Shown one piece after another: positions 6,443-64,000 of a stretch of DNA of 64,000 nt (within the stretch, counting starts at the first letter, position 1; every line of letters starts with the position of its first letter). The stretch comes from Eledone cirrhosa. Its lineage: Eukaryota. The stretch lies in assembly GCA_964016885.1 (NCBI GenBank), contig OZ024744.1, forward strand, positions 92,194,001 to 92,258,000, given 5' to 3'. The notes under the pieces were generated by a model. The model was not told the origin of the DNA and did not search any database. It saw nothing but the letters and a program-made list of their open reading frames with translations. The translations under genes and the position numbers were made by a program.

Positions 6443-6775
6443 AATAATTTCGTATTTCCAAAGAAATACGGTTTTATGAAGCCATAGCTATGCAAATGAG
6501 AATCAGGTTCCGTTTGGATATCCAAATGGAACTTGAACCGATAAGGTTTGGTTTATCGGGTATGTCACTATTTATAAAACAAATTTTGTATTTTATCTGA
6601 TGAGAGCATACCAAAGTTTTTTTTGGTACCCTTGAAATATATATAATAAAATAAATATAGTTTTCCATTTATTAATATCATTGATATTATACTCCAGGAA
6701 ACCTGTCGAGTGCTTTGAATCTATTATAAATAAATTTGTTGAATTACCAGTTAATTAAATATCTCTTTGCTTATA
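6443..6775 (+). mobile_element. Hammerhead mini-element in (TA)n (PLE-like, non-autonomous or truncated)
   Basis: Hammerhead at 6589, hairpin at ~6504-6536, second copy at ~54855-55045 (-). Confidence 0.65.
6589..6653 (+). ncRNA. Type I hammerhead ribozyme (same family as 54912-54973)
   Basis: TATTTTAT-CTGATGA-GAG..ACCAAA/TTTGGT..CTT-GAAA-TATATATA^ATAAAATA. Stem I is a perfect 8 bp, stem III is palindromic, triplet AUA. Confidence 0.85.
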
Positions 6776-7810: not shown

Positions 7811-10672
7811 ATCATCATCATCATCATCATCATCATCATTTTACGTCCGCTCTTCCCTGCTGGCAAGGGTGGGACGGGTCTTATTCAGCACACCATCTCT
7901 CCACTCGTCACGGTCCTTCGTCATCTCCACCGTGAGCTTCAGCGATCTGAGGTCTGTTCTCACCACTTCCGCCGATGTTTTTCGTGGTCTACCTCTACCA
8001 CGTCTTCCTTCAACTAGAATTTCCTGGCACTTCTTCACCCATCGGTCATCCTCCATGCGCATCACATGTCCATACCACCTCAGTCTCCTCTCTCGCACAC
8101 TACATTCTATCCCTCTCAGACACAGTTTCTCTCTCAACACATTCATGCTGGGTCGTTCACGCACATTGACATTGCACATCCAACGGAGCATGCTTGCCTC
8201 ATTTCTCTCCAGCCATCGCATATCCTCTGCAGTTGCTGCCCATGTCTCACTACCATGCAGCATCACGCTCCTCACACAGGCATCATATAACCGGCCTTTT
8301 GTATGCAGGGAGAAACCCTTCTTCGTCAACAGAGGAAGCAGCTCGCTAAACTTCTTCCAACCCGTCCTTTTTCTAGGTACTATGGCCTCGGACCCCCCCC
8401 CCCCCCTCTCATGCTAATCTGATCTCCTAGGTATCGGAAGCTATCCACCACTTCTATAGCACCCGCCTGCATTTGGAAAATGTGTCTATCAATGTGACTT
8501 CTACTGTCTAATTTCCCTGTACATCTACTGCATACGTATTTCTCCCTACCTGTTAGTTTGCCTGCTATCCCGCCACATCTCTTGTGTACCCAGGATCTGC
8601 ATTGTCTACATTTTATAGAATTTATGCCAGTTCCTTTTCTGCATATCGAACATGGCCATTTCCCTGACGGAATCAGAGTTTTGTCCTCTTTTCTGCTCAT
8701 CAACACTTTTGTCTTAGCTAGGTTCACTCTCAGTCCTTTTGATTCCAACTGCTGTTTCCATAGCCAGAATTTATTCTCTAGCTCCTCTACTGATTCTGCT
8801 ATAAGAACCAGATCGTCAGCATAGAGAAGTTCCCATGGACAGCCAGTCTTAAACTCCTCTGTTATGGCTTCGAGGACTATAATGAACAAGAGAGGACTAT
8901 AATGAACAAGAGAGGATTATAATGAACAAGAGAGGACCGAACCCTGATGTACTCCTACTTGTATCTGGAATTCGTCACTAAACTCCATTCCTACCCTCAC
9001 TTTACTGACAGCACCTCTGTACAAATTTTGCACTGTCCTCACAAGCCATTCCTCAACACCTAGTTTCTTTAGGGACCACCAGATGACAGATCGGGGTACC
9101 CTATCAGAGGCCTTCTCTAGGTCAACAAAGGCTAAGTATAGTGGCTTATTTTTCTCTAAGAACCTCTCTTGTAATTGTCTCACCAAGAAGAGGGCATCTG
9201 CTGTACACTTCCCAGGCACAAAACCAAACTGCATCTCATCTAGTTTGACCCTTTCTCTAATTAGTTGTGCTAATATCCATTCTGCCACTTTCATAACCTG
9301 ATCCATCAGTTTTATACCCCTATAATTGCTCCTCTCCAGAGCATCCCCTTTACCTGTGTAGCAATTTATGAGAATACTGCTGCACCAGTCTTTGGGTATG
9401 ACACCACCATATATAGCCTGATTGATGATGCGTGCAACCAGTTTAGTGCCTACGTCCCCTGATGCCTTCAGCATCTCAGCAACTATTCCCGATGGTCCAG
9501 CAGCCTTACCATTTTTCATTTCCTTAATCGCCTCTTGGACTCTATATTCGTCAATCTCAATAGCTGGTCTACTGAGGGTAATTTCTCTCACTCCCATTCG
9601 TTCTCCACATTCATCAGTCTCTCATAATGACATTTCCAGGCCTCCTTTTTCTGATCATTCGTGACACTAAGTACACCAGCATCATTCCGGACACATTTAT
9701 ATCCCAAAACATCCTGATTTGCATTGACACACTGCCTTGTCGCAGAACATTGTCAAACCTCCTACTCTCAGCCTCCCTGCGTGCTAAGTACACCTGACAT
9801 CTAGCTTCTCTCTTAACAGCTGTATATCCTTCTCTACTCCCACCCTTTTTCTAAGCCTTCCATGCTATTCTTTTGTCTCTAATGGCCTTATCTACTGTGC
9901 TGTTCCACCACCAGATCACTCTCTGTCTGGTTGGAGCTCTGCTCCAGCCACAAGTTTCATCAGTAGCCTGAAGTAAGTCGTCACGTAAGAAATTCCAGTT
10001 ATTATCTATGTCATACTATTATTATCTAAATCATCTTATTTTTCGTCATACACATCTTGAAGGGCTTTGCTAAATTTGTATTTTAGTGAAAGGTCTTTTA
10101 GCTTCCAGACCTTTCTTATCCACACCTTCCTGTATGTCTCATTCCTTCTCTTGCTTACTTAGATATCACTAATGACTAACCTATGCTGTGTGGTACATTC
10201 TTCCCCAGGGTATGCCTTGGTATTAGACACTATCTGCCTGTCCTGCTGCCTAACTAGTAAGAAGTCAATCTGGCTTATGTGCTTGCCAGATTTATAGGTT
10301 AATAGGTGGTTGGCAGGTTTCTGGAAGTTAGTGTTGCAAATAGTCAGTGTACTTGCATCACAAAATTCAAGAAGTCTCACTCCTTCTTCATTTCTTGAGC
10401 CGTAACCGTGCCCACCATGTACCCCAATGTAACCATCCTGGAGCTGTCCAACAGGACCATTGAAGTCCCCTGCTAGCATAACGATGTCTCCGTCCTCTGT
10501 CATTGCTGTTGTTTATAAAAGTTGCTCGTAAAATCAGTCTTTCTCTTCTTTGCCTAGGCCTGCTTGGGGAGCTTAGGCAGAGGTGATTGTCAGTAGTCTC
10601 CTGCCTACAACTAATCTAAGCTTAATTATTCGATTACTAACTCGAACTACCTCTATTGTCTTATTGATCCAT
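7811..10672 (-). mobile_element. RTE-clade LINE, 5'-truncated and decayed (APE endonuclease + RT, (ATG)n tail)
   Basis: ORF pieces: AGDFNG..SQIDF..QHRLV (APE), KAAGPSG..NYRGIKL..FVDLEKA.D..GVHQGS, LLYADD, RRLRWYGHV..GRPRKT. (CAT)n at 7812-7838. A 20-bp x3 duplication at 8876-8938 breaks the ORF. Confidence 0.95.
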
Positions 10673-10851: not shown

Positions 10852-13800
10852 TGTTTCTTTATTAGCCACAGGGGCACAAAAGAAGGGGACAAATACAAAG
10901 GGAAGTTTACATACAATAAAAACATGTAAAATACTATCACAAATACAATTTAAAATTAATCGATTTTCCCCAATAGGGGGAGACATTACATATGGGTAAC
11001 ACATACCCCCGAAAAAAATGTGCAACCCTCATCTCCAGGAGTACGAAGTGTGAGTACCCCCTTCCTCTTTTCCTCTTTTTCCTCAACCTATAGGCTGATA
11101 TAGAGAGAAGGCCCATTCCCTCAGGCCATTCTCGCCACTTTCACCCACCTTTCATAAAACTTGTTGGGGTACAGCATCTCTCTCTCCATCCTGATTCTTC
11201 TTCCAAAGTGGTATTTGAAAAAAAAAATCAGTTGTTGGGCGGAGAGAAAGGTGTCTGACTGACCTCAGCCCTTTTCACCTCGTCCACCATATAACCTCTT
11301 TCGCCATAGCTATCACACAAAGGAAAACCGCCTCTCCTTCGTTTTTGAAGAAGGGTGGCGGTTTGATCATGACAATGGACTCGGTGGTCAACCAGATTGG
11401 TCCCACCCGCGACAATAGTCATTCTACATAGCCCCACAGGTCGGTAACGCCCGGGCAGTGTACGAATGCGTGCGCAACGGTTTCTTCGTCACGCACGCAT
11501 CTCGGACAGATCTTTTTCAAAGGGTCCCTTCCCGAGCACCCATGTCTGTAGAGTTTGTCTAGAACTGGTAGAGCTCCTCGGTAGCACTGCCAGGCCAAGG
11601 ACTTTTGGAAGTTGTCCATCGGTCTCGGGCAGAAGGTCCTACCGAACAGACTGTTCAGTTCGTCTTCCTCTGCGCCTAGAGTTTCTCCGAGCGCGTCGTC
11701 GCACTTGCTGCGGACCAACCCTCTATAGAATGACGAAGTGGAGTCTCCACTGATCGCCGGGTCCACCTGCCAGACGGTTGTGAGCGCCTGAGCACATTCG
11801 ATGTGCCAGTCACCCATTTTCCTCGGTCTTTGCTTGACCAAGGACTGCAGCTCGGTCAGCGAGACGAGTCGTAGGAAGACTCGCCTCACGAACGGGGCCC
11901 ACACCGGTTGTCTGGTGAGGAATACGTGGAGGTGCCGCAGCCTGAGCACGTGTTTGCGCATCGTCAGCCACGGCAACCCCAGCCCTCCGTTTGAAGGGTG
12001 TTGGCAGCAGATAGATCTTCTCACCAAAGGAGCCCGTTTCTTCCAAAGGAATTGGAAGAGTGCGCACTCCATTTTGGTGAGAGTTTTGGCCGGACAAGAC
12101 ACGACGGTCAAGCGGTAGTAGATGACGGACGCTATAAAAGTGTTCGCCACCTCCGCTCGACCTTTCAAGGATAGTTTGCACTCGGCACACTTCTGGGTGA
12201 GCGCAAACACCTTGGTCGTCACCTCGTTCCAGTTCTTCTCAACCTGGAGGTCGGGGACCAAACCAGACTCCTTGCAGCTTTACCGGTCCTTCCGTCCAGC
12301 GTCCGACGACGCCGTCGGAAGGCATCGGTTTGCCTCTCCACGATCCGAGTTGCAAACCGACGGACTTGTCCTGGTTCAGCTTCGCTCCTGTGAACCTTTC
12401 GTATTCCTTCAGTAAGGTGCCAACTTCCTCGATTTGCGAGGTGCTCGACACCATTACTGTCACATCGCTTTCCGCAGTCCCGGTTCTAGAGGGATGGCCT
12501 GCAATAGCTCCAACTTCCGCAGTAGTGGCTCGAGAGTCAGTACGTACAGAAGGGAGGAGAGAGGGCATCTCTGTCAAATTGATCGCGTGATATGGAACGG
12601 CTCTGAGAGGTAGTCGTTCACCTTGACCCTTGAGCAGATGTTGCTGTTGTGCATTGCAGCAATCCAGCCCCTGAACACGGGTCCGAAGCCTGCCGCCTCG
12701 AGCACCGCATCCAGGTAACGATGGTCAACCCTATCGAAAGCCTTAGACTGATCCAAGTTGATCAGGGCCCCACCGAAACCGGATTTACACCCTACCCTCT
12801 CTATGATGTATCGCATGAGGTTGAGGTTGTCGTGTATGGACCATGTCTGCGCTTCTAACACCAGGTTTTCGACGACAAGCGCCAGCCTCTTTGCCAACAC
12901 CTTGGCCAAAATCTGTAACTCTGTGTTTAGCAGAGTTATGGGCCGGAAGTTGCCTATGTCATCCCCCTTGTTCTCGTCCCCCTGGCTTGTGTGACTACGC
13001 CCCTGGTCACAGAACTGGGAATTCTCCCGTTATGCTGCCAGTTACAGTAGACTGCTTCCAGAAGACGGGAGAACAAGTCCGGCATTGCTACGTAAAATTC
13101 GTAGGGTAGACCGTCGAGACCTGGAGATTTGCGTTTTCCGCATTGGCTCAGCGCGTCCTCTATCTCAGCGGCTGAAATCGGCTTTTCGCAGAACTTCGCC
13201 TCGCTGTCCAAGAGTCGCGGTAGGCCGTCGAGGTATGGACCGAAATCCATAGCCCCTCCAGGCGCGCGGCCCTGCCCGAACAGCTGAGAAAAGTGCCGCT
13301 GAAAGCCCGAGCACATCTGCTTCGGCTCACGTATCACGCGTCCGTCTAGGTCCTTCAAAGACCGAATCGTGGACTTGTTGCCACTTTTCTCCTCCGTCAC
13401 CCGGGCCCTCGTTACCCAGAGCACGTATTTTGCTTCTGACAACGCAGCCCTCGTGCTTTGTGTCGAAGCACTGGTCCAAGGCCGTTCTCGTTGCTGCACG
13501 CTGGCTACGTTGCCACTTCTAATTGCCTCTTCTACTTTATCTACCAGTTACTTCTCGGTCCTATTTCTATCTAACGCTAATTCTTTACTAAAAAATAACG
13601 AGTCCAATCTAACTGCCCACTTGCGAGAGCACCACCATCTGTTGTTGACAATGGCCCCTATCAAGTGCTGTTTAACTAAAGTGCTAATCCGTCTACTGTA
13701 GGCTTTGCATGTCGGTAACGACAAGTTCAGCTTCCAGTAGCCGGGTCCTTGTCTATGGGTTCTATCAAGGTTGACCATGCAGGTCACTAGTTTGTGATCT

Positions 13801-14291
13801 GAATAGGCAACCATGAACATTTGTGGACAGCTTAACATGTCCCTATCCTTATTTCTAACTAGAATCTAGGTACGATCTAGATGTTCCGCTGAGATTAGTC
13901 CACGTCCACAGTGGCACAGTCGGAAAATCTAGTCGATATCTATCGGCCAGGTCAAATCGGCCGATTAACTGTTTGAGGCTGTTACACCCCCCCTTTATCG
14001 GGACATACTCCCACATAGTCCCAACGTGCATCCAGTCCCCCACTAAAAGTAGGAGCGGGACGTTTCCAGAAAAGTCTCTAGACGTTTGAAGAAGTCTGGC
14101 CGCGGTGTCTCGGATGGGGCATATGCGTCCACCAGCCTGAAGGCTCCACCTTCACTACCGTCAACGTCTAGGACCACCAGTCGACCCTCCGGGTCCAGAT
14201 GTACCGTCTGTGTTACGAGGACCAGGTGTTTCCTCAGCAAAACAGCAACCCCGCCCCCACCTCCCGGCTGACATAGCGATGCGTAGATCTC
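10852..14291 (-). mobile_element. Tx1/L1-clade LINE copy A (decayed ORF2: APE, RT, C-terminal CCHC)
   Basis: GGGVAVLL..DPEGRLV..YAP, SDHKLV..GPGYWKLN, KSPGLDGLPYEFY, LDQSKAFDRVDH, LSLKGRAEV, CPRC..ETVAHAFVHCP. The 3' AATAAA abuts (TC)n. Confidence 0.93.
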
Positions 14292-14310
14292 ATAGATAGA
14301 TAGATAGATA

Positions 14311-17300
14311 TCTTTCTTTATTTGCCACAGGGGCGTAGAAAAATGGGACATTACAAGACGTGACGGCGGGGGTTTTACATAACAATAACTTTAACATTAA
14401 TAAATAACAATACACTATATATAATAAAATAGCAATTGAAATCCCCAGTAGGGGGAACGTTACTGCAGGGTTGTATTACACCCCGTGGATAGAACAACCC
14501 TCAACACCAGGAACACGTTTTGTAGGTGTTCCTATCTTCCCTCTGTTTATCTTCCTCAACCTACAGGTTTATATACAGAGAAGGCCCATTCACTCGGGCC
14601 ATTTTTTCCACATTCACCCACCTTTCAGCGAATTTACTGGCGTGTAGCACCTCTCTCTCCACTCTCACCTTCCTTCTGAAGTGATACTTAAAGAAGGAGA
14701 TAAGTTGCTGTCCGGAGAGAAAGGTGTTTGCCCTCAGTCCTTTTAACCTCGTCCACCATATTACCCCTTTCGCCATAGCCACCAGACAGAGGAAAACCGC
14801 CTCTCCTTCGTTCTTAAATGAAGGCGGCGGGGTGATCCTCACGATGGACTCGGCTGACAACTGGATGCGTCCCACACGTGACAGCAGCTGTTCAACATAA
14901 TTCCACAGGTCGGTCAACTCTGGGCACTGAACAATTGCGTGCAGAACGGTTTCGATGTTTTGCTCACATCTTGGACAGGTCCTTTTGGCAGGATCTCTGC
15001 CAGTGCGTCCGTGCCTGTAGATTTTGTCTCGAACTGGTGGAGCTCCTCGGTAGCACTGCCAGGCCAGAGACCTCTGGAAGTTATCCATAGGCCCTGGACA
15101 GAAAGTCCCCCCGAACAGACTTGTCAGTTCGTCCTCCTCGATGCCTAGAGTTTCCCCGAGAACGTCGTCGCACTTATCCTCCACTATTCCCCTATAGAAT
15201 GTCGAAGTGGAGTCTCTGCTGATTGTCGTTTCCGCTTAGTAGAGGGCTGTGAGAGTCTGTAGGCACCCATTTTCGGTCTTCGCTTGACCCAGGACTGCAG
15301 CTCTGTTAGTGAGACGAGTTGTGGAAGAGCTTGTCTCACAAACGACAGCCACACCGGTTCACCGGTCAGGAATACCTGGAGATGGCGTAGCATCACCAGC
15401 CACGGCATGCCCAGCCCTCCGTTAGAAGGGTGTTGACAGCAAATGGATCTCCTCACCAATGGAGCCTGTTTCTTCCAGAGGAACTTGAAGAGTAGGCGTT
15501 CCATTTTGGTAAGGTATTCGCGGGGGTAAGGCACGACTGTCAAGCGGTAGTTGATGTCGGACGCTATGTAAGTGTTCGTCACCTCCGCTCAACCTTTCAA
15601 GGAGAGTTTGCACTCAGCCCACTTCTGGGTGAGTGCAAACACCTTCGCCGTGACCTCGTTCCAGTTCTTGTCCTCCTGGAGGTCTGGACCGAACCAGACC
15701 CCGAGCAATTTCACCGGTCCTTCCGTCCAGCGTCCAACGACACTGTCGGAAGGCATGGTTTAGCCTCTCCATGTGCCGAGTTGCAAACCAACAGACTTGT
15801 TTGGGTTTAGTCTTGCTCCTGTCAACGTTTCGTATTCCTGTAATAGGTTGCCGATTACCCGGATTTCCGAGGTTTTCGACACCATTACGGTTATGTTGTC
15901 GGCATAGGTCGACGCTGCTTTCCGCAGTCTTGGTTCGATCGGGATGCCCTGCAACAGCTCCAATTTCCGCAGCAACGACTCGAGAGTCAGTACATACAGA
16001 ATGGAGGAGAGGGCATCCCTGACGGATGGAACGCATGATTTGGAATGGCTCTGAAAGGTAGCCATTCACCTTGACTGCCGAGCAGATGCTGGTGTGCTTG
16101 GCAGCGATCCAGCCTCTGAAGACGGCACCGAAGCCGGCCGCTTTGAGAACTGCTTCCAAGTATTGATGGTCGACCCTATCAAATGCCTTAGACTGATCTA
16201 AATTGATCAGAGCCACACCAAAGCCAGGTTTACACCCTACCCTCTCTATGATTTATCGCATGAGGTGGAGGTTGTCGTGTATGGACCTGGTCGGGATTGC
16301 ACATGTTTGGGCTTCCCCTACTAGGTTCTCGACGACAAGCGCCAGCCTTGCTGCTAACACCTTGGCCAAAATCTTTAACTCTGTGTTAAGCAGAGTTATG
16401 GGCCTGAAATTGCTTATCTCATCCCCCTTGTTCTCATCTTTCCTGATCAGCGTTATTACGCCTCTGCCTACAGAACTGGGAATCCTCCCGTTCTGCTGCC
16501 AGTTGCAGTAGACCGCTTCGAGGACGCCAGAGAACAAGTCTAGTATGTAAAACTCATAGGGTTACCATCTAAACAGGGTGATTTGCGTTTCCCGCAGCGG
16601 CCTAGGGCATCTTCTATTTCGCCCGCTGTGATCGGCCTTTCGCAGCTCTCCGCATCCGTGCTCGAGAGTCGCGGTACGCCGCCGAGGTAGGAGCTGAAGT
16701 CCATCACCTCGCTCGATGTACCGCTTTTCCCGAACAGTTGTGCAAAATGCTGCTGGAAGGCCGCACACATCTGCTTGAATTCAAGTATAATGCGTCAATC
16801 TTTGTCTTGCAAAGACCGAATTGTGGATTTGTTGCCACTTTTCGCCTCTGTCACTCGGGCCCAGCTAACAGCTTTGGCTCCCTCGTTTCTTAGAGCACGT
16901 GTTCTACTTCTGACAATACAACCTTCGTGTTTCACGTTGAAGAACTGGTCTAGTGCCGTTCTCGCCGCTAGCACGCCAGCTTTACTGCCATTCCTAAGTG
17001 CCTCTTCTATTTTAGCTACCAGTTCCTTTTCAGTTTTGTTTTTTTCTAAAGCTACTTCCTTGCTAAATGCTATCGATTCTATTCTAATTGTTCTCTTGAG
17101 AGAGCTCCACCACCTGTTGTTGACGATCGCCCCCGTCAACTGGCCCTTAACTAAGGTGCTAATCTGTTTATTGTAGGCCTTACGCGCCGGGAGTGACATC
17201 TTTAGCTTCCAGTATCCGGGTCCCTGTCTATGTGTTCTATCAAGGTTGACTACGCAGGTGACTAATTTGTGGTCTGAATAGGCAACCATGTTCATTTGTG

Positions 17301-17543
17301 GACAGCTTAATGTATCCTTATCATTCTGTCTAATTAAAAATCAATCTAAATACGATCTAGAAGACCCAGTGCGGTTGCTCCACGTCCACAGTGGTGCACT
17401 TGGGAAGTCTAGTCGATATCTATCAGCCAGTTGGAATTGGCTAATGAGATTGTTGAGGCTATTACACCCCCCCCCCTCTATTATCACAACCTCCTACATA
17501 GTCCCAACGTGCGTCTAAGATGCCATTCCAGTCCCCCGCTAAC
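14311..17543 (-). mobile_element. Tx1/L1-clade LINE copy B, tandem with copy A
   Basis: Same domain order (SDHKLV, NFRPITLLN, DQSKAFDRV, RQGCPL, YADN, CPRC..HAIVQCP). The 3' end CCCCTGTGGCAAATAAAGAA abuts (TATC)n. Confidence 0.93.
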
Positions 17544-20829: not shown

Positions 20830-21036
20830 ATGTAGGTAACACGGCAAAAAGTTCCCAGTCCACACTGTAAACATAGTTGGTGTGAGGAATGGCACCCAGC
20901 TGTAGAAAACCTGCCAGATAGTCCTATATGAGCGAGACACGGTCACCCGACTAACCTTGCCTCAAGTGGGACAACTCCCGTCAAACCCATGCTAGCGTGG
21001 AAGATGGACGTTAAACGAAGATGATGATGATGATGA
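20830..21036 (+). mobile_element. SINE 3' part with RTE-like tail (homolog of 7050-7340)
   Basis: CACACTGTAAA..GGAATGGCACCCAGCTGTAGAAA..CCCATGCTAGCGTGGAAGATGGACGTTAAACG(ATG)n. Confidence 0.7.
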
Positions 21037-21066
21037 TATGTATAGATATATGTATATATACGTGTG

Positions 21067-21164
<98 letters not shown>

Positions 21165-21166
21165 CG

Positions 21167-21211
<45 letters not shown>

Positions 21212-21276
21212 ATATATATATGTATATATACATATTTATATATACGTATGTATGTATACATATATATACATATATA

Positions 21277-21337
<61 letters not shown>

Positions 21338-21345
21338 ATGTATAC

Positions 21346-22112
21346 ATACATATATGTATACGGACGTACAGTAGTATGTATATATATACATACATGCACA
21401 CATATATATATATGCACGTATCGGTTTACCGATCATTTATTATAATGCTCGGTTTGTTTGTTTGTAAACAAGCAGCTCGAATTACGCCGTAGCATTATAA
21501 TAAATGTTCGGTAAACCGATACGTGCATATATATATGTATGCATGTATGTATATATATACATACTACTGTACGTCTGTATACATATATGTATGTACGTAT
21601 ACATACATACGTACATTTAAGTAAGTGCCGTACTAAGAGTGAGAAATGAAATTTCGTTTCATTCTATTCCATTTATCGTTTTCGGTGTGCCCGGCCGACT
21701 GAACTCACTCGATATGCAAATTAGGCTGCTCAGCCGTTAATATGCATAAGGAATGTATATACTTTCAGACGTTCAACCATCTGACAGGAAGGTATACGAT
21801 GCTGACGATAGCTAATAAGCTTGAAATTAGTACATCGTTCCTGTGTCATTGTTGAACAAAAAGGTGACGTGGTTGCATAAACACTGTACGGCGTAATTCG
21901 GGCTGTTTGTTTGTTTACAAACAAACCGAGCATTATAATAATTGTTCGGTAAACCGATACGTGCATATATATATGTGTGCATGTATGTATATATATATAC
22001 ATACTACTGTACGTTTGTATACATATATGTACATACATATATACATACATACTTACATTTAAGTAAGTGCCGTAGTAAGAGTGAGAAATGAAATTTCGTT
22101 TCATTCTATTCC
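21346..22112 (+). mobile_element. Retrozyme-like/mini-PLE: 438-nt unit in ~1.4 tandem copies plus 5' inversion
   Basis: Direct repeat 21491-21672 = 21929-22112 (period 438). 21346-21490 is an inverted copy of ~21887-22035. One hammerhead lies in the unit. Confidence 0.8.
21796..21838 (+). ncRNA. Minimal type I hammerhead ribozyme
   Basis: ACGATG-CTGACGA-tAGCT(aata)AGCTt-GAAA-TTAGTA^CATCGT. Stem I is a perfect 6 bp, triplet GUA. Confidence 0.85.
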
Positions 22113-22473
22113 ATATATATGTATATATGTTGTTGTTGTTTTCTATCCGGAGCTCATAAATATGTAATATGTTGGTCAAGCAATGGTAATGATTTCATAT
22201 TTTGGCTCAAGGCCATGATGAATTTTGGCAGAGAGAGAGAGGGTGGGGGAGAAACAGAGGGGGACAGAAAAACATAGAGAAAAGAGAGAAATAAAGAAAA
22301 AGAAAGGAAGAATGAAAAAGAAAGAGAGAAACTATAAATCAGTATTTGATTGGTGTTTTTTGTTTTTATGTGTGTGTGTGTGTATATATATGTATATATG
22401 TATATATATAGAGAGATTTCTATTATTATATATATACGGATTGGCGTGGAGGTGAACATATATATATATATAT

Positions 22474-22729
22474 AACGAAGGAAATGTGGTAAGGAACCAG
22501 ATGGACTATAACACACCAAAGTACTCCTTATTTATAGTAGATGTACGTGAGTATATGTAAACAAATCGAAATCGATCCGCTGGTTATGTAACAAGTATAA
22601 ATGAACGACGAAGCATTGTAGACAAGGCATCTTATGTTGTTTATTACATAACTAATAAGCTCTGTAGCCTACATAGAGCACTCTTTTTTCCTGTACCTTT
22701 ACGACGGAATTACTTCACATATAAGTACT

Positions 22730-22822
<93 letters not shown>

Positions 22823-23026
22823 CAAAGGAATTGTGGTAAGGAACCAAATGGACCATGACGCACCAGAGTACTCAATACTTAGGGTAGTAGAGTGGGTAGT
22901 AGAGCTCAAGCCGTTTCGACGGCTATTTCCAGAAATAGCCGGCGAAACGGCTTGCGCTCTGCCGTCGGAGTCATACTTTTTCCTATATATATATACACAC
23001 ATATATATATACACGTATATATATAT

Positions 23027-23067
<41 letters not shown>

Positions 23068-23122
23068 TATATGTATATATACACATATATATACACACAC
23101 ACATATATATATATACATATAT

Positions 23123-23163
<41 letters not shown>

Positions 23164-23236
23164 TATACACACACACATATATATATATATACATACACAC
23201 ATATATATATATATATGCATATATATACATACACAC

Positions 23237-23297
<61 letters not shown>

Positions 23298-23338
23298 CAC
23301 ACATATATATATATATATACATATATATACATACACAC

Positions 23339-23422
<84 letters not shown>

Positions 23423-23609
23423 CGAAGGAAATGTGGTAAGGAACCAGGTGGACCATAACGCACCAAAGTACTCAATACTTAGGGTAGTAGAGTGGGTAAT
23501 AGGAACGAGTAGGACCCCGACGGCTGAGCTCAAGCCGTTTCGACGGCTAATTCAGAATTAGCCGTCGAAATGGCTTGAGCTCAGCCGTCGGGGTCCTACT
23601 CGTTCCTAT
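22474..23609 (-). mobile_element. Three copies (22474-22733, 22821-22985, 23421-23609) of a short (TA)n-inserted family with a fixed end
   Basis: All begin with AACGAAGGAAATGTGGTAAGGAACCA (or a close variant) directly after (TA)n. Two end in long fold-back hairpins containing GAAAC..GTC half-hammerheads. Confidence 0.75.
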
Positions 23610-24039
23610 ATATATATATATATATTGTTGATCTCTTAAGGATGAAAGGATGATTTGACCTCTGCATATTTTCAAATGAAATATAGATTGAGAACAGAGA
23701 CAATGGCTGAGCTAAAGATGGCTTAGTGGATGGGGGTTTTGTTGTTGTTTGTTGTTGTTTCTCTGGGGCGGAGGTGAGGGGTAGGGGGTTATAGCATGGC
23801 TAGGCTAATGATTTTGTTGTTTACATCAACACCACCACCACCATCATAATAATGGATAAAATGGAGAAGGAAGGGGAGGAGGGGATGATGAGAAGTAGGA
23901 GGAGGAAAGGAAGAAGGAAAAGGAAGAAGAAAGAGAAGAAAAAGAAAAAGAAAAAGAAAAAGAAAAAGAAAAAGAAAAAGAAAGTTAAGAAGAAGACGAA
24001 GAATAAGTGTAGGAGGAGAGGGGGGGGGAGAAAATAATA

Positions 24040-26218: not shown

Positions 26219-29200
26219 ATTAATACACATATGTACACATGTACTCACGCACACATGTACACGTACACACATATAATACACACATGTACACATGTACTCA
26301 CGCACACATGTACACGTACACACATATAATACACATATGTACACATGTACTCACGCACACATGTACACGTACACACATATAATACACATATGTACACATG
26401 TACTCACGCACACATGTACACGTACACACATATAATACACATATGTACACATGTACTCACGCACACATGTACACGTACACACATATAATACACATATGTA
26501 CACATGTACTCACGCACACATGTACACGTACACACATATAATACACATATGTACACATGTACTCACGCACACATGTACACGTACACACATTTAATACACA
26601 TATGTACACATGTACTCACGCACACATGTACACGTACACACATATAATACACATATGTACACATGTACTCACGCACACATGTACACGTACACACATATAA
26701 TACACATATCTACACATGTACTCACGCACACATGTACACGTACACACATATAATACACATATGTACACATGTACTCACGCACACATGTACACGTACACAC
26801 ATATAATACACACATGTACACATGTACTCACGCACACATGTACACGTACACACATATAATACACATATGTACACATGTACTCACGCACACATGTACACGT
26901 ACACACATATAATACACACATGTACACATGTACTCACGCACACATGTACACGTACACACATATAATACACATATGTACACATGTACTCACGCACACATGT
27001 ACACGTACACACATATAATACACATATGTACACATGTACTCACGCACACATGTACACGTACACACATATAATACACACATGTACACATGTACTCACGCAC
27101 ACATGTACACGTACACACATATAATACACATATGTACACATGTACTCACGCACACATGTACACGTACACACATATAATACACACATGTACACATGTACTC
27201 ACGCACACATGTACACGTACACACATATAATACACATATGTACACATGTACTCACGCACACATGTACACGTACACACATATAATACACATATGTACACAT
27301 GTACTTACGCACACATGTACACGTACACACATATAATACACATATGTACACATGTACTCACGCACATATGTACACGTACACACATATAATACACATATCT
27401 ACACATGTACTCACGCACACATGTACACATATATAATACACATATGTACACATGTACTCACGCACACATGTACACGTACACACATATAATACACATATCT
27501 ACACATGTACTCTCGCACACATGTACACGTACACACATATAATACACACATGTACACATGTACTCACGCACACATGTACACGTACACACATATAATACAC
27601 ATATGTACACATGTACTCACGCACACATGTACACGTACAGACATATAATACACATATGTACACATGTACTCACGCACACATGTACACGTACACACATATA
27701 ATACACATATGTACACATGTACTCACGCACACATGTACACGTACACACATATAATACACATATCTACACATGTACTCACGCACACATGTACACACATATA
27801 ATACACATGTGTACACATGTACTCACGCACACATGTACACGTACACACATATAATACACATATGTACACATGTACTCACGCACACATGTACACGTACACA
27901 CATATAATACACATATGTACACATGTACTCACGCACACATGTACACGTACACACATATAATACACACATGTACACATGTACTCACGCACACATGTACACG
28001 TACACACATATAATACACACATGTACACATGTACTCACGCACACATGTACACGTACACACATATAATACACACATGTACACATGTACTCACGCACACATG
28101 TACACGTACACACATATAATACACACATGTACACATGTACTCGCGCACACATGTACACGTACACACATATAATACACACATGTACACATGTACTCACGTA
28201 CACATGTACACGTACACACATATAATACACATATGTACACATGTACTCACGCACACATGTACACGTACACACATATAATACACATATGTACACATGTACT
28301 CACGCACACATGTACACGTACACACATATAATACACATATGTACACATGTACTCACGCACACATGTACACGTACACACATATAATACACAGATGTACACA
28401 TGTACTCACGCACACATATACACGTACACACATATAATACACATATGTACACATGTACTCACGCACACATGTACACGTACACACATATAATACACATATG
28501 TACACATGTACTCACGCACACATGTACACGTACACACATATAATACACATATGTACACATGTACTCACGCACACATGTACATGTACACATACACACATAT
28601 AATACACATATGTACACATGTACTCACGCACACATATACACGTACACACATATAATACACAGATGTACACATGTACTCACGCACACATATACACGTACAC
28701 ACATATAATACACATATGTACACATGTACTCACGCACACATGTACACGTACACACATATAATACACATATGTACACATGTACTCACGCACACATGTACAC
28801 GTACACACATATAATACACATATGTACACATGTACTCACGCACACATGTACACGTACACACATATAATACACATATGTACACATGTACTCACGCACACAT
28901 GTACACGTACACACATATAATACACACATGTACACATATACTCACGCACACATGTACACGTACACACATATAATACACACATGTACACATGTACTCACGC
29001 ACACATGTACATGTACACACATATAATACACACATGTACACATGTACTCACGCACACATGTACACGTACACACATATAATACACACATGTACACATGTAT
29101 TCACGCACACATGTACACGTACACACATATAATACACATATGTAGACATGTACTCACGCACACATGTACACGTACACACATATAATACACATATGTACAC

Positions 29201-32200
29201 ATGTACTCACGCACACATGTACACGTACACACATATAATACACATATGTACACATGTACTCACGCACACATGTACACACATATAATACACATGTGTACAC
29301 ATGTACTCACGCACACATGTACACGTACACACATATAATACACATATCTACACATGTACTCACGCACACATGTACTCGTACACACATATAATACACATAT
29401 CTACACATGTACTCACGCACACATGTACACGTACACACATATAATACACATATGTACACATGTACTCACGCACACATGTACACGTACACACATATAATAC
29501 ACACATGTACACATGTACTCACGCGCACATGTACACGTACACACATATAATACACACATGTACACATGTACTCACGCACACATGTACACGTACACACATA
29601 TAATACACATATCTACACATGTACTCACGCACACATGTACACGTACACACATATAATACACACATGTACACATGTACTCACGCACACATGTACACGTACA
29701 CACATATAATACACATATGTACACATGTACTCACGCACACATGTACACGTACACACATATAATACACATATGTACACATGTACTCACGCACACATGTACA
29801 CACATATAATACACATGTGTACACATGTACTCACGCACACATGTACACGTACACACATATAATACACATATCTACACATGTACTCACGCACACATGTACA
29901 CGTACACACATATAATACACATATCTACACATGTACTCACGCACACATGTACACGTACACACATATAGTACACATATGTACACATGTACTCACGCACACA
30001 TGTACACGTACACACATATAATACACACATGTACACATGTACTCACGCGCACATGTACACGTACACACATATAATACACACATGTACACATGTACTCACG
30101 CACACATGTACACGTACACACATATAATACACATATCTACACATGTACTCACGCACACATGTACACGTACACACATATAATACACATATCTACACATGTA
30201 CTCACGCACACATGTACACACATATAATACACATATGTACACATGTACTCACGCACACATGTACACGTACACACATATAATACACATATCTACACATGTA
30301 CTCACGCACACATGTACACGTACACACATATAATACACATATGTACACGTACACACATATAATACACATATGTACACATGTACTCACGCACACATGTACA
30401 CACATATAATACACATGTGTACACATGTACTCACGCACACATGTACACGTACACACATATAATACACATATCTACACATGTAATCACGCACACATGTACT
30501 CGTACACACATATAATACACATATCTACACATGTACTCACGCACACATGTACACGTACACACATATAATACACATATGTACACATGTACTCACGCACACA
30601 TGTACACGTACACACATATAATACACACATGTACACATGTACTCACGCGCACATGTACACGTACACACATATAATACACACATGTACACATGTACTCACG
30701 CACACATGTACACGTACACACATATAATACACATATCTACACATGTACTCACGCACACATGTACACGTACACACATATAATACACACATGTACACATGTA
30801 CTCACGCACACATGTACACGTACACACATATAATACACATATGTACACATGTACTCACGCACACATGTACACGTACACACATATAATACACATATGTACA
30901 CATGTACTCACGCACACATGTACACACATATAATACACATGTGTACACATGTACTCACGCACACATGTACACGTACACACATATAATACACATATCTACA
31001 CATGTACTCACGCACACATGTACACGTACACACATATAATACACATATCTACACATGTACTCACGCACACATGTACACGTACACACATATAATACACATA
31101 TGTACACATGTACTCACGCACACATGTACACGTACACACATATAATACACACATGTACACATGTACTCACGCGCACATGTACACGTACACACATATAATA
31201 CACACATGTACACATGTACTCACGCACACATGTACACGTACACACATATAATACACATATCTACACATGTACTCACGCACACATGTACACGTACACACAT
31301 ATAATACACATATCTACACATGTACTCACGCACACATGTACACGTACACACATATAATACACATATCTACACATGTACTCACGCACACATGTACACACAT
31401 ATAATACACATATGTACACATGTACTCACGCACACATGTACACGTACACACATATAATACACATATCTACACATGTACTCACGCACACATGTACACACAT
31501 ATAATACACATATGTACACATGTACTCACGCACACATGTACACGTACACACATATAATACACATATCTACACATGTACTCACGCACACATGTACACGTAC
31601 ACACATATAATACACATATGTACACATGTACTCACGCACACATGTACACGTACACACATATAATACACACATGTACACATGTACTCACGCACACATGTAC
31701 ACGTACACACATATAATACACACATGTACACATGTACTCACGCACACATGTACACGTACACACATATAATACACATATCTACACATGTACTCACGCACAC
31801 ATGTACACGTACACACATATAATACACATATGTACACATGTACTCACGCACACATGTACACGTACACACATATAATACACACATGTACACATGTACTCAC
31901 GCACACATGTACACACATATAATACACATATGTACACATGTACTCACGCACACATGTACACGTACACACATATAATACACATACACACGTACACACATAT
32001 AATGCACATATGTACACATGTACTCACGCACACATGTACACGTACACACATATAATACACATATGTACACATGTACTCACGCACACATGTACACGTACAC
32101 ACATATAATACACATATGTACACATGTACTCACGCACACATGTACACGTACACACATATAATACACATATGTACACATGTACTCACGCACACATGTACAC

Positions 32201-35200
32201 GTACACACATATAATACACATATGTACACATGTACTCACGCACACATGTACACGTACACACATTTAATACACATATGTACACATGTACTCACGCACACAT
32301 GTACACGTACACACATATAATACACATATGTACACATGTACTCACGCACACATGTACACGTACACACATATAATACACATATCTACACATGTACTCACGC
32401 ACACATGTACACGTACACACATATAATACACATATGTACACATGTACTCACGCACACATGTACACGTACACACATATAATACACACATGTACACATGTAC
32501 TCACGCACACATGTACACGTACACACATATAATACACATATGTACACATGTACTCACGCACACATGTACACGTACACACATATAATACACACATGTACAC
32601 ATGTACTCACGCACACATGTACACGTACACACATATAATACACATATGTACACATGTACTCACGCACACATGTACACGTACACACATATAATACACATAT
32701 GTACACATGTACTCACGCACACATGTACACGTACACACATATAATACACACATGTACACATGTACTCACGCACACATGTACACGTACACACATATAATAC
32801 ACATATGTACACATGTACTCACGCACACATGTACACGTACACACATATAATACACACATGTACACATGTACTCACGCACACATGTACACGTACACACATA
32901 TAATACACATATGTACACATGTACTCACGCACACATGTACACGTACACACATATAATACACATATGTACACATGTACTTACGCACACATGTACACGTACA
33001 CACATATAATACACATATGTACACATGTACTCACGCACATATGTACACGTACACACATATAATACACATATCTACACATGTACTCACGCACACATGTACA
33101 CATATATAATACACATATGTACACATGTACTCACGCACACATGTACACGTACACACATATAATACACATATCTACACATGTACTCTCGCACACATGTACA
33201 CGTACACACATATAATACACACATGTACACATGTACTCACGCACACATGTACACGTACACACATATAATACACATATGTACACATGTACTCACGCACACA
33301 TGTACACGTACAGACATATAATACACATATGTACACATGTACTCACGCACACATGTACACGTACACACATATAATACACATATGTACACATGTACTCACG
33401 CACACATGTACACGTACACACATATAATACACATATCTACACATGTACTCACGCACACATGTACACACATATAATACACATGTGTACACATGTACTCACG
33501 CACACATGTACACGTACACACATATAATACACATATGTACACATGTACTCACGCACACATGTACACGTACACACATATAATACACATATGTACACATGTA
33601 CTCACGCACACATGTACACGTACACACATATAATACACACATGTACACATGTACTCACGCACACATGTACACGTACACACATATAATACACACATGTACA
33701 CATGTACTCACGCACACATGTACACGTACACACATATAATACACACATGTACACATGTACTCACGCACACATGTACACGTACACACATATAATACACACA
33801 TGTACACATGTACTCGCGCACACATGTACACGTACACACATATAATACACACATGTACACATGTACTCACGTACACATGTACACGTACACACATATAATA
33901 CACATATGTACACATGTACTCACGCACACATGTACACGTACACACATATAATACACATATGTACACATGTACTCACGCACACATGTACACGTACACACAT
34001 ATAATACACATATGTACACATGTACTCACGCACACATGTACACGTACACACATATAATACACAGATGTACACATGTACTCACGCACACATATACACGTAC
34101 ACACATATAATACACATATGTACACATGTACTCACGCACACATGTACACGTACACACATATAATACACATATGTACACATGTACTCACGCACACATGTAC
34201 ACGTACACACATATAATACACATATGTACACATGTACTCACGCACACATGTACATGTACACATACACACATATAATACACATATGTACACATGTACTCAC
34301 GCACACATATACACGTACACACATATAATACACAGATGTACACATGTACTCACGCACACATATACACGTACACACATATAATACACATATGTACACATGT
34401 ACTCACGCACACATGTACACGTACACACATATAATACACATATGTACACATGTACTCACGCACACATGTACACGTACACACATATAATACACATATGTAC
34501 ACATGTACTCACGCACACATGTACACGTACACACATATAATACACATATGTACACATGTACTCACGCACACATGTACACGTACACACATATAATACACAC
34601 ATGTACACATATACTCACGCACACATGTACACGTACACACATATAATACACACATGTACACATGTACTCACGCACACATGTACATGTACACACATATAAT
34701 ACACACATGTACACATGTACTCACGCACACATGTACACGTACACACATATAATACACACATGTACACATGTATTCACGCACACATGTACACGTACACACA
34801 TATAATACACATATGTAGACATGTACTCACGCACACATGTACACGTACACACATATAATACACATATGTACACATGTACTCACGCACACATGTACACGTA
34901 CACACATATAATACACATATGTACACATGTACTCACGCACACATGTACACACATATAATACACATGTGTACACATGTACTCACGCACACATGTACACGTA
35001 CACACATATAATACACATATCTACACATGTACTCACGCACACATGTACTCGTACACACATATAATACACATATCTACACATGTACTCACGCACACATGTA
35101 CACGTACACACATATAATACACATATGTACACATGTACTCACGCACACATGTACACGTACACACATATAATACACACATGTACACATGTACTCACGCGCA

Positions 35201-38200
35201 CATGTACACGTACACACATATAATACACACATGTACACATGTACTCACGCACACATGTACACGTACACACATATAATACACATATCTACACATGTACTCA
35301 CGCACACATGTACACGTACACACATATAATACACACATGTACACATGTACTCACGCACACATGTACACGTACACACATATAATACACATATGTACACATG
35401 TACTCACGCACACATGTACACGTACACACATATAATACACATATGTACACATGTACTCACGCACACATGTACACACATATAATACACATGTGTACACATG
35501 TACTCACGCACACATGTACACGTACACACATATAATACACATATCTACACATGTACTCACGCACACATGTACACGTACACACATATAATACACATATCTA
35601 CACATGTACTCACGCACACATGTACACGTACACACATATAGTACACATATGTACACATGTACTCACGCACACATGTACACGTACACACATATAATACACA
35701 CATGTACACATGTACTCACGCGCACATGTACACGTACACACATATAATACACACATGTACACATGTACTCACGCACACATGTACACGTACACACATATAA
35801 TACACATATCTACACATGTACTCACGCACACATGTACACGTACACACATATAATACACATATCTACACATGTACTCACGCACACATGTACACACATATAA
35901 TACACATATGTACACATGTACTCACGCACACATGTACACGTACACACATATAATACACATATCTACACATGTACTCACGCACACATGTACACGTACACAC
36001 ATATAATACACATATGTACACGTACACACATATAATACACATATGTACACATGTACTCACGCACACATGTACACACATATAATACACATGTGTACACATG
36101 TACTCACGCACACATGTACACGTACACACATATAATACACATATCTACACATGTAATCACGCACACATGTACTCGTACACACATATAATACACATATCTA
36201 CACATGTACTCACGCACACATGTACACGTACACACATATAATACACATATGTACACATGTACTCACGCACACATGTACACGTACACACATATAATACACA
36301 CATGTACACATGTACTCACGCGCACATGTACACGTACACACATATAATACACACATGTACACATGTACTCACGCACACATGTACACGTACACACATATAA
36401 TACACATATCTACACATGTACTCACGCACACATGTACACGTACACACATATAATACACACATGTACACATGTACTCACGCACACATGTACACGTACACAC
36501 ATATAATACACATATGTACACATGTACTCACGCACACATGTACACGTACACACATATAATACACATATGTACACATGTACTCACGCACACATGTACACAC
36601 ATATAATACACATGTGTACACATGTACTCACGCACACATGTACACGTACACACATATAATACACATATCTACACATGTACTCACGCACACATGTACACGT
36701 ACACACATATAATACACATATCTACACATGTACTCACGCACACATGTACACGTACACACATATAATACACATATGTACACATGTACTCACGCACACATGT
36801 ACACGTACACACATATAATACACACATGTACACATGTACTCACGCGCACATGTACACGTACACACATATAATACACACATGTACACATGTACTCACGCAC
36901 ACATGTACACGTACACACATATAATACACATATCTACACATGTACTCACGCACACATGTACACGTACACACATATAATACACATATCTACACATGTACTC
37001 ACGCACACATGTACACGTACACACATATAATACACATATCTACACATGTACTCACGCACACATGTACACACATATAATACACATATGTACACATGTACTC
37101 ACGCACACATGTACACGTACACACATATAATACACATATCTACACATGTACTCACGCACACATGTACACACATATAATACACATATGTACACATGTACTC
37201 ACGCACACATGTACACGTACACACATATAATACACATATCTACACATGTACTCACGCACACATGTACACGTACACACATATAATACACATATGTACACAT
37301 GTACTCACGCACACATGTACACGTACACACATATAATACACACATGTACACATGTACTCACGCACACATGTACACGTACACACATATAATACACACATGT
37401 ACACATGTACTCACGCACACATGTACACGTACACACATATAATACACATATCTACACATGTACTCACGCACACATGTACACGTACACACATATAATACAC
37501 ATATGTACACATGTACTCACGCACACATGTACACGTACACACATATAATACACACATGTACACATGTACTCACGCACACATGTACACACATATAATACAC
37601 ATATGTACACATGTACTCACGCACACATGTACACGTACACACATATAATACACATACACACGTACACACATATAATGCACATATGTACACATGTACTCAC
37701 GCACACATGTACACGTACACACATATAATACACATATGTACACATGTACTCACGCACACATATACACGTACACACATATAATACACATATCTACACATGT
37801 ACTCACGCACACATGTACACGTACACACATATAATACACATATCTACACATGTACTCACGCACACATGTACACGTACACACATATAATACACATATGTAC
37901 ACATGTACTCACGCACACATGTACACGTACACACATATAATACACATATCTACACATGTACTCACGCACACATGTACACGTACACACATATAATACACAT
38001 ATGTACACATGTACTCACGCACACATGTACACGTACACACATATAATACACATATGTACACATGTACTCACGCACACATGTACACACATATAATACACAT
38101 ATGTACACATGTACTCACGCACACATGTACATGTACACATACACACATATAATACACATATGTACACATGTACTCACGCACACACGTACACACATATAAT

Positions 38201-38526
38201 ACACATATGTACACATGTACTCACGCACACATGTACACACATATAATACACATATGTACACATGTACTCACGCACACATGTACACGTACACACATATAAT
38301 ACACATATCTACACATGTACTCACGCACACATGTACACGTACACACATATAATACACATATCTACACATGTACTCACGCACACATGTACACACATATAAT
38401 ACACATATGTACACATGTACTCACGCACACATGTACACGTACACACATATAATACACACATGTACACATGTACTCACGTACACATGTACACGTACACACA
38501 TATAATACACATATGTACACATGTAC
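26219..38526. repeat. 53-bp satellite (ACACATATGTACACATGTACTCACGCACACATGTACACGTACACACATATAAT) with 5673-bp higher-order duplication
   Basis: Unit period is 53. Rare variants recur at +5673 (CATTTAAT at 26588 and 32261; identical ORFs at 27982/33655 and 30202/35875). Confidence 0.96.
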
Positions 38527-54344: not shown

Positions 54345-54696
54345 TATTTATATTAAAATATAAATATTAATAAAATAGATGTTCTTTTGATCAATTACAT
54401 TTTATTATGGTTAAGATTTAATACATAATGGTTAAGATTTAATCAAGGTACTACCTTGATTAAATCTTAACCATTTAACATCTCAGCGTATGTCATGTAT
54501 CATTATATTTTGTCTGATGAGGACGTACTGCTGTACATCCGAAATATGTATAACAAAATGTAATTGATCAAAAGAACATCTATTTTATTAATATTTATAT
54601 TTTAATATTAATAACTCCAAAGTATTTTCACGTAGAGTGCTTCCAATCTACTGTAAAACTCATTCTTTGACATAATCATTGTATATCGTTTAACAC

Positions 54697-54911: not shown

Positions 54912-54973
54912 TATTCTATTATATATATTTCAAGGGTACCAAAAACTTTGGTACGCTTTCATCAGATAAAATA
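54912..54973 (-). ncRNA. Type I hammerhead ribozyme (same family as 6589-6653)
   Basis: Minus strand: TATTTTAT-CTGATGA-AAGcGTACCAAA..TTGGTACcCTT-GAAA-TATATATA^ATAGAATA. Flanks ~54855-55045 are homologous to ~6520-6700. Confidence 0.85.
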
Positions 54974-63000: not shown

Positions 63001-64000
63001 TGGGGCACTGCATTCTTTTACTGGTATCAGTCATTGGACTGTGGCCATGCTGGTGCACTGCCTTCTTTTACTGGTTTCAGTCATTAGACTGTGGCCATGG
63101 TGGGGCACTGCATTCTTTTACTGGTTTCAGTCATTAGACTCTGGCCATGTTGGGGCACTGCATTCTTTTACTGGTTTCAGTCATTGGACTGTGGCCATGC
63201 TGGGACACTGCCTTCTTTTACTGGTTTCTGTCATTAGACTGTGGCCATGCTGGGGCACTGCATTATTTCACTGGTTTCTGTCATTAGACTGTGGCCATAC
63301 TGGGGCACTGCCTTCTTTTACTGGTTTCAGTCATTAGACTGTTGCCATGCTGGGGCACTGCATTCTTTTACTGGTTTCAGTCATTGGAATGTGGCCATGC
63401 TGGGGCACTGCTTCTTTTACTGGTTTCAGTCATTAGACTGTGGCCATGCTGGGGCACTGCATTCTTTTACTGGTATCAGTCATTGGACTGTGGCCATGCT
63501 GGGGCACTGCATTCTTCTACTGGTTTCAGTCATTGGATAGTGGCCATGCTGGGGCACTGCCTTCTTTTACTGGTTTCAGTCATTGGACTGTGGCCATGCT
63601 GGGGCACTGCATTCTTTTACTGGTTTCAGTCATTAGACTGTGGCCATGCTGGGGCACTGCCTTCTTTTACTGGTTTCAGTCATTAGACTGTGGCCATGCT
63701 GGAGCACTGCTTCTTTTACTGGTTTCAGTCATTGGACTGTGGCCATGCTGGGGCACTTTCTTCTTTTACTGGTTTCAGTCATTAGACTGTGGCCATGCTG
63801 GGGCACTGCCTTCTTTTACTGGTTTCAGTCATTAGACTGTGGCCATGCTGGAGCACTGCTTCTTTTACTGGTTTCAGTCATTGGACTGTGGCCATGCTGG
63901 GGCACTTTCTTCTTTTACTGGTTTCAGTCATTAGACTGTGGCCATGCTGGGGCACTACATTCTTTTACTGGTTTCAGTCATTAAACTGTGGCCATGCTGG
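57083..64000. repeat. 50-bp satellite (TTTCAGTCATTRGACTGTGGCCATGCTGGGGCACTGCATTCTTTTACTGG) with 1599- and 3245-bp higher-order periods; runs off the window
   Basis: Period is 50. Variant patterns recur at +3245 (58446/61691, 59496/62741) and +1599 (57397/58996). Confidence 0.96.

Follow-up and report, generated by a model that had tools for sequence, protein, structure and literature searches.

The window, a stretch of 64,000 nt, comes from an AT-rich animal genome of 3.0 Gb and contains a short non-coding element with one hammerhead ribozyme motif, copied over more than its own unit length and preceded by an inverted piece of itself (Table 1). The direct repeat was already reported in the preliminary description, as 21491-21672 recurring at 21929-22112; the repeat is real and slightly longer, since 21491-21676 aligns to 21929-22118 with 93.2% identity over 190 columns (E 5e-77). 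Owing to indels in the internal TA tract, the repeat has a period of 438 at its 5′ end but of 442 at its 3′ end. The inverted piece is also present, although its length is about 165 nt and not the 145 bp first given; it is the reverse complement of 21887-22051 (89%, 167 columns), and 42 nt in it are absent from the first direct pass. Thus, it did not arise as a fold-back of the neighbouring copy; it is a unit copy of its own, attached head-to-head to the main one. The 3′ end does run into (TA)n, as had been stated, but only for about 16 nt, the long TA/TG tract being on the left side. Likewise, the unit is non-coding, yet it is not free of reading frames: the only ATG frame above 51 aa in the element is a 124-aa one on the minus strand, which runs through the low-complexity TA tract.

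Table 1. Features of the element and of its flanks (positions refer to the window).
Feature	Position	Strand	Remarks
(TA/TG)n microsatellite, left target flank	21036..21326		Boundary with the element fuzzy; TA-rich flanks common in the family
Inverted 5′-truncated piece, ~165 nt	21327..21491	-	Ends outwards at the short (S) 3′ site; putative second cDNA, joined head-to-head to the main copy
First full period, 438 nt	21491..21928	+	5′ truncation point arbitrary, ~97 nt beyond the cut phase
Internal TA-rich self-complementary tract, within the unit	21520..21617	+	Second copy at ~21958-22055
Type I hammerhead	21796..21838	+	Helices I, II and III of 6, 4 and 2 bp; cut predicted at 21832/21833
Second, partial pass through the unit	21929..22114	+	Ends at the long (L) 3′ site
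'Tail', ~55 nt separating the short from the long 3′ end	22058..22114	+	Putative pair of RT start sites; cf. PMC11167929, PMC8557442
Short TA run (~16 nt), right target flank	22115..22130		Read from the sequence

Other repeats are found in the same window. Three copies of a different TA-embedded element, devoid of hammerheads in the pattern scan, occupy 22470-23610; the longest of them terminates in about 110 nt of near-perfect palindrome (23497-23610), and the same element also adjoins the loci L037 and L063. Broken LINE-type RT/endonuclease reading frames lie at 7841-9621 and 11419-17340, which are putatively RTE-like and L1/Tx1-like by their motifs, and long minisatellites with units of 53 nt and 50 nt extend over 26221-38526 and 57083-64000. 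The window comprises three more type I hammerheads, at 6597-6645 (+), 54920-54965 (-) and 54514-54552 (+); the first two belong to one family, found also upstream of the locus L108, and the third to another.

The preliminary description had indicated one hammerhead in the unit, with a predicted cut after 21832, and the pattern scan recovered precisely this motif. Helix I is formed by 21796-21801 and 21833-21838, followed by CUGACGA (21802-21808), a 4-bp helix II, GAAA and a short helix III. Rfam gave no match in the window at gathering score; therefore, the motif call rests on the pattern scan and on the pairing across copies. Across 46 distinct hammerhead sequences from sister families, picked by a pattern allowing 3 mismatches, 96.7% of cells are paired. 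One helix I pair switches between A-U, G-U and U-G, with changes on both sides, and no compensatory change was observed in helices II and III among the 46 sequences, so that a single helix pair covaries in a test that is inflated by the kinship of the sequences. The columns that vary at the subfamily level within the motif are that same helix I pair, N7 and loop II. The geometry is that of canonical metazoan type I hammerheads (helix I 6 bp, II 4 bp, III 1-2 bp, palindromic loop; cf. PMC4209133), and the palindromic helix III leads us to expect, by analogy, that the ribozyme would act as a dimer. When the monomer was folded as a circle, an analysis suggested from the start, the hammerhead helices formed with pair probabilities of 0.46-0.82 and 0.9-1.0. 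The folding z of the unit (-6.05) was discarded as a fold signal, as it is mostly due to the TA palindrome, without which z is -2.8.

Intact cores were found in 39/40 and 82/96 dispersed copies from two samples, neither of which was drawn with a hammerhead-only query, the first query having overlapped the motif as part of 333 nt. The copy in the window differs from its family at 21827, in helix III (palindrome ACTAGT), where a private T replaces the C. Since it contains a single hammerhead, this copy would be unable to release a monomer by itself; together with the private change in helix III, this marks it as a product and not as a source of monomers.

The family is large. An exact 30-mer hammerhead word occurs 2,740 times in the genome (control 0), and a 17-mer located just downstream of the cut gives 32,427 exact matches (control 1), which take in sister families that have this hammerhead in common and whose periods are about 420-530 nt; in this family, the unit periods are 438-445. 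An unrelated satellite (L233-L262) was left out of all counts. Insertions were studied in 90 loci from the first 100 matches by position on one contig (C1), reduced to 86 by dropping 4 duplicates. The preliminary description had anticipated tandem copies with a shared 3′ end, and this was borne out with two ends instead of one: 40 insertions end at phase 205-240 (the short site, which is the end of the internal TA tract), 34 at 262-290 (the long site) and 12 elsewhere, so that 74/86 fall in two classes, with 5′ ends scattered round the unit. The duplication is not unique to this locus either, as 47 insertions exceed one unit and 4 exceed two units; at least two hammerheads are present in 12/86. 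An inverted 5′ piece accompanies 46 of the 86 insertions, and in 24 of the 30 classable cases the main and the inverted pieces end at opposite 3′ sites (binomial p 0.0014, Fisher p 0.0025); the locus in the window conforms to this pattern, with the main copy at the long site and the inverted piece at the short one. This two-start 'tail' pattern, known from Penelope, did not enter the preliminary reading. The 3′ flank consists for more than half of TA/AT steps in 50/86 insertions.

Besides dispersed insertions, the unit and its relatives form arrays. The largest (G000:C28:109960000-110070000, L363-L370) consists of a sister unit of about 421 nt and spans at least 100 kb (109.960-110.067 Mb); 80 kb of it were read, with one gap of about 4 kb, and 145 of 169 sampled hammerhead cores are intact. 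It may thus be regarded as a candidate source of multimeric RNA. An array of about 21 kb of the present unit, with higher-order repeats (G000:C1:70055967-70076685; L102, L151, L152, L359), has no intact core among 45 in two 10-kb stretches, mostly owing to C3 to A changes; as the cores of this A-type array are dead and those of the dispersed A copies are intact, the array is not the source of the dispersed copies. In another array of more than 10 kb (C1:332.04 Mb), 11/25 unit cores are intact. A 3.7-unit insertion (L027:343-1992) displays nested sharing of variants, between units 0-1 and then 0-2, a pattern more like stepwise duplication than one rolling pass.

Penelope-like elements (PLEs) are abundant in this genome: GIY-YIG domains were scored in 150 cases among 10,596 candidates, and RT and/or GIY-YIG were confirmed in all 10 ORFs scanned, five of which have both. 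No parent was identified among them. An ORF with RT and GIY-YIG between pLTRs was not found for this element, the unit was not a terminal repeat at any of the 50 GIY-YIG loci compared, and no autonomous element with this hammerhead was detected in the same 50 loci and in 18 scored 3′ regions; three GIY-YIG loci do contain the unit (L145, L163, L164), and these are read as independent insertions. One autonomous family encoding RT and GIY-YIG (L156:3600-6129, L161, L166, L168) possesses its own hammerhead (5,772 exact words) and two 3′ ends about 45 nt apart, both running into TA. The unit tail aligns to the post-hammerhead region of this family with a score of 35 (shuffles 20 +/- 2.8, 0/200), marginal after about 70-90 comparisons; the family is a candidate partner by behaviour, its parentage being unproven. 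Several opposite-strand pairs of its hammerheads lie exactly 113 nt apart among the first 100 matches listed, which suggests a fixed inverted junction. A young PLE family (L153:4309-7122, L154, L158, L162, L164) has about 97% protein identity between copies and an ORF of up to 938 aa, and the pattern scan of those loci revealed no hammerhead.

On these grounds, the locus is very probably a copy of a dispersed non-coding hammerhead repeat of about 440 nt, i.e., a non-LTR retrozyme, inserted in the manner of PLEs. As to its template, we lean towards an RNA cut by the ribozyme and re-joined into a circle, which appears the likeliest reading of the DNA. The RNA and protein steps that we infer would start with the transcription of loci containing at least two hammerheads, which, probably as dimers formed through the palindromic helix III, would excise monomers that are then ligated. 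A PLE protein, endowed with reverse transcriptase and endonuclease, would nick both strands of a TA target, and two cDNAs would start internally, one at the long site and the other at the short site; in the present case, one may have run for 1.4 turns and the other for about 165 nt, before the truncated cDNA ends were joined to each other.

The main argument for a circle is that a non-coding passenger has kept its hammerhead paired and that there is no stop at the cut. In the sample drawn with the 17-mer, and so without use of the hammerhead, 76 of 92 copies extend upstream of the cut by at least 49 nt and a single one stops within 5 nt of it; the cut linear monomer is therefore not the usual template, and the RNA was either re-joined, or uncut, or crossed by a jump. 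Thus, the earlier proposal that the cDNA passes over the cut site is correct, while its reading of the crossing as the footprint of a circle does not follow, because linear multimers or RT jumps give the same DNA. Sequence variation provides further evidence. Successive passes within one insertion differ by 5.0% and random copies by 7.7%; rare non-CpG variants are common to adjacent passes in 11.9% of cases (308 pairs, 129 loci), or 10.1% in 1.x-unit copies (57 pairs), and to the main and inverted pieces in 13.9% (219 pairs), the same-subfamily controls giving 1-2%, in a sample enriched for multimers from which 29/210 loci were dropped as duplicates or array overlaps. This sharing fits one monomer that is read repeatedly; gene conversion or homogeneous source arrays would also produce it. 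Against the circle, about 88% of the rare variants occur in a single pass only, and at the locus in the window no rare variant is common to two passes in the scored columns. Moreover, successive units differ at three or more subfamily markers in 13 of the 115 testable arrays, about six of them clearly by inspection, and one monomeric circle cannot give these arrays. Two further points weigh against it: the array of at least 100 kb could provide linear multimers, and head-to-tail tandems are also produced by the non-autonomous Chlamys elements, whose clade is mostly devoid of hammerheads (PMC8557442).

Kinship of rare variants across loci was also considered as a sign of unit-specific inheritance; however, the strong pairs turned out to be 5′-end misalignments into the TA flank (L202, L272, L220) or members of one minor subfamily (L069, L081), and the signal is uninformative.

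A possible, if doubtful, alternative keeps the same element and the same PLE machinery and dispenses with the circle: the template would be linear and uncut, a read-through transcript from a locus of several units, on which RT starts internally at the tail and copies over the unit boundaries. Multimeric sources do exist, as indicated by the insertions with two or more hammerheads and by the arrays of about 21 kb, more than 10 kb and at least 100 kb; a linear template also predicts no pile-up of 5′ ends at the cut, and the chimeric arrays come naturally from heterogeneous linear sources. In addition, the PLE PAc prefers unprocessed RNA, which was the dominant substrate in vitro, hammerhead mutations being ignored (PMC11167929, Frangieh et al. 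2024). This alternative, however, offers no explanation for a paired hammerhead kept across families with such different periods, and it is at odds with the sharing of rare variants between successive passes, about 10 times above the control, and with the 21-kb A-type array, whose cores are dead although the dispersed A copies are intact.

It is improbable that the templates were linear monomers cut by the hammerhead, with RT reaching the 5′ cut end and jumping to the 3′ end of the same or of another monomer. Clear chimeras whose switch interval includes the cut (L108, L004/L173, L186, L232, L212, L224) are in favour of such jumps and, with unbiased training, the cut is the best of 13 switch positions, with a margin of only 1.7-3.8 log-likelihood units; the coincidence of switches with the cut did not reach significance in formal tests. 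On the other hand, with a single copy out of 92 ending at the cut, jumps would need near-constant success, and A/BC discordance over the cut (2/88) is no higher than over other intervals (2/106, 4/76, 6/126).

Some apparent signals of switching were rejected. Subfamily switches at the cut reached 14.7-27.4 units when training ran from cut to cut, and the 1.7-3.8 obtained by training on the whole chain leaves only a weak lead; a training split at column 288 shifted the switch peak to 288 in one of two runs (8.3). An excess of discordance over the cut in a first block test (7/113) disappeared with stricter two-marker blocks (2/88).

A long ORF-bearing Penelope element, of which the unit would be the pseudo-LTR and the copies would be 5′-truncated partial tandems, is very unlikely. 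The end anatomy is indeed that of PLEs, and the marginal tail alignment to one autonomous family (L156) weakly points in the same direction; however, the end of the unit is joined directly to its start in arrays that reach hundreds of units, and the 86 insertions have no shared longer body joined to the element, which upholds the earlier view of a tiny complete element as opposed to a truncated long PLE. Sequence near the boundary was common to six pairs of 5′ flanks; in every pair it consists of TA tracts or of other repeats embedded in TA. When 11 PLE proteins of this genome were used as probes, matches were found near 14 of 276 element loci, and never upstream on the same strand (the strand relation of L326 and L350 being judged from the motif strand); thus, embedding in a longer ORF-bearing element, which the preliminary description had considered, was not observed. 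A local tandem duplication is scarcely credible: although the long arrays attest to local amplification elsewhere, more than half of the unlinked insertions (47/86) are longer than one unit, their 3′ ends being fixed and their 5′ ends variable, and the inverted piece has sequence that the first pass lacks.

For the superfamily as a whole, with its tens of thousands of copies, we tentatively suggest that the ends may record a PLE RT dimer that started twice, about 55 nt apart, on a hammerhead-made circle and rolled past the ligation junction, and that the rare chimeras which change subfamily at the cut may record the joining of different monomers at ribozyme ends. If this were true, the genome would bear direct evidence that PLEs drive the rolling reverse transcription of circular RNA, and that hammerheads of the PLE type have a role in vivo.

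Retrozymes of this kind are already known from many animals, so that one more copy matters little. Metazoan non-LTR retrozymes were defined by Cervera and de la Pena (2020; PMC7229834), with circles in coral, mussel and axolotl, and PLE RTs were proposed there to make tandem cDNA from the circles; circles as templates for retrotranscription of more than one unit had been proposed already in 2014 (PMC4209133). Similarly to those elements, the present one is a short non-coding tandem unit in the range of 150-450 bp, with a type I hammerhead and no LTR structure, which occurs from monomers to large multimers, in thousands of copies, in a genome where PLEs co-occur. Circle-templated RT is the cycle proposed for the metazoan retrozymes; the unit described here is unrelated to them in sequence and is known from DNA alone. 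According to a recent preprint, retrozymes derive from PLE pLTRs (Li, Clavereau and Pollet 2026; 10.64898/2026.07.22.740005). Among Xenopus retrozyme dimers, 8/9 gave no cleavage in vitro and 1/9 was cleaved (10.64898/2026.07.22.740005). Under the rule of the same authors, by which 'active' retrozymes have at least two consecutive complete hammerheads, the locus in the window, having one, would not be counted as active, while other loci of the family would.

Long tandem arrays, such as the one at G000:C28:109.96-110.07 Mb, recall the hammerhead satellites of newts and salamanders (as reported in PMC7229834), for which transcripts and circles are experimental, unlike in the present family, where the evidence comes from genomic DNA. 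A non-coding PLE passenger with multicopy head-to-tail insertions has a parallel in MRC1, one of the non-autonomous Chlamys elements described in PMC8557442; those elements, however, are green-algal, belong to a clade mostly without hammerheads, and have 3′ ends resembling autonomous families. The main text of PMC13282606 does not contain the word 'ribozyme', and our literature search yielded no paper that deals with this family or with complementary tails among retrozymes, although supplements and repeat libraries may hold such information.

The family suits two questions, namely what mobilises animal retrozymes and whether their template is the circle proposed in 2014 and 2020. Both could be tested in practice, since this genome combines copies in the thousands and subfamilies that can be diagnosed with a 100-kb array containing intact cores and with autonomous PLEs of young age.

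The closest resemblance in insertion structure is to EN+ PLEs, for which partial tandems, inverted 5′ copies, a one-ended tail and microsatellite targets were reported (PMC8557442, Craig et al. 2021; PMC3846280, Arkhipova et al. 2013). The present element shares with them the 5′ truncation, the partial tandems, the inverted 5′ copy and the AT/TA-rich targets, together with a tail 'present only at one end' (PMC8557442) and 3′ ends that lie internally, downstream of the hammerhead. It differs in having no ORF, a tail of about 55 nt as opposed to their 30-40, and no parent found at the sequence level. For PAc, the tail maps to two internal RT starts (PMC11167929). The two-start tail and the complementary inverted ends seen here are undescribed in the published accounts of retrozyme insertion that we cite; the complementary two-start tail offers mechanistic evidence for the PLE machinery and adds to the phylogenetic evidence given in the 2026 preprint.
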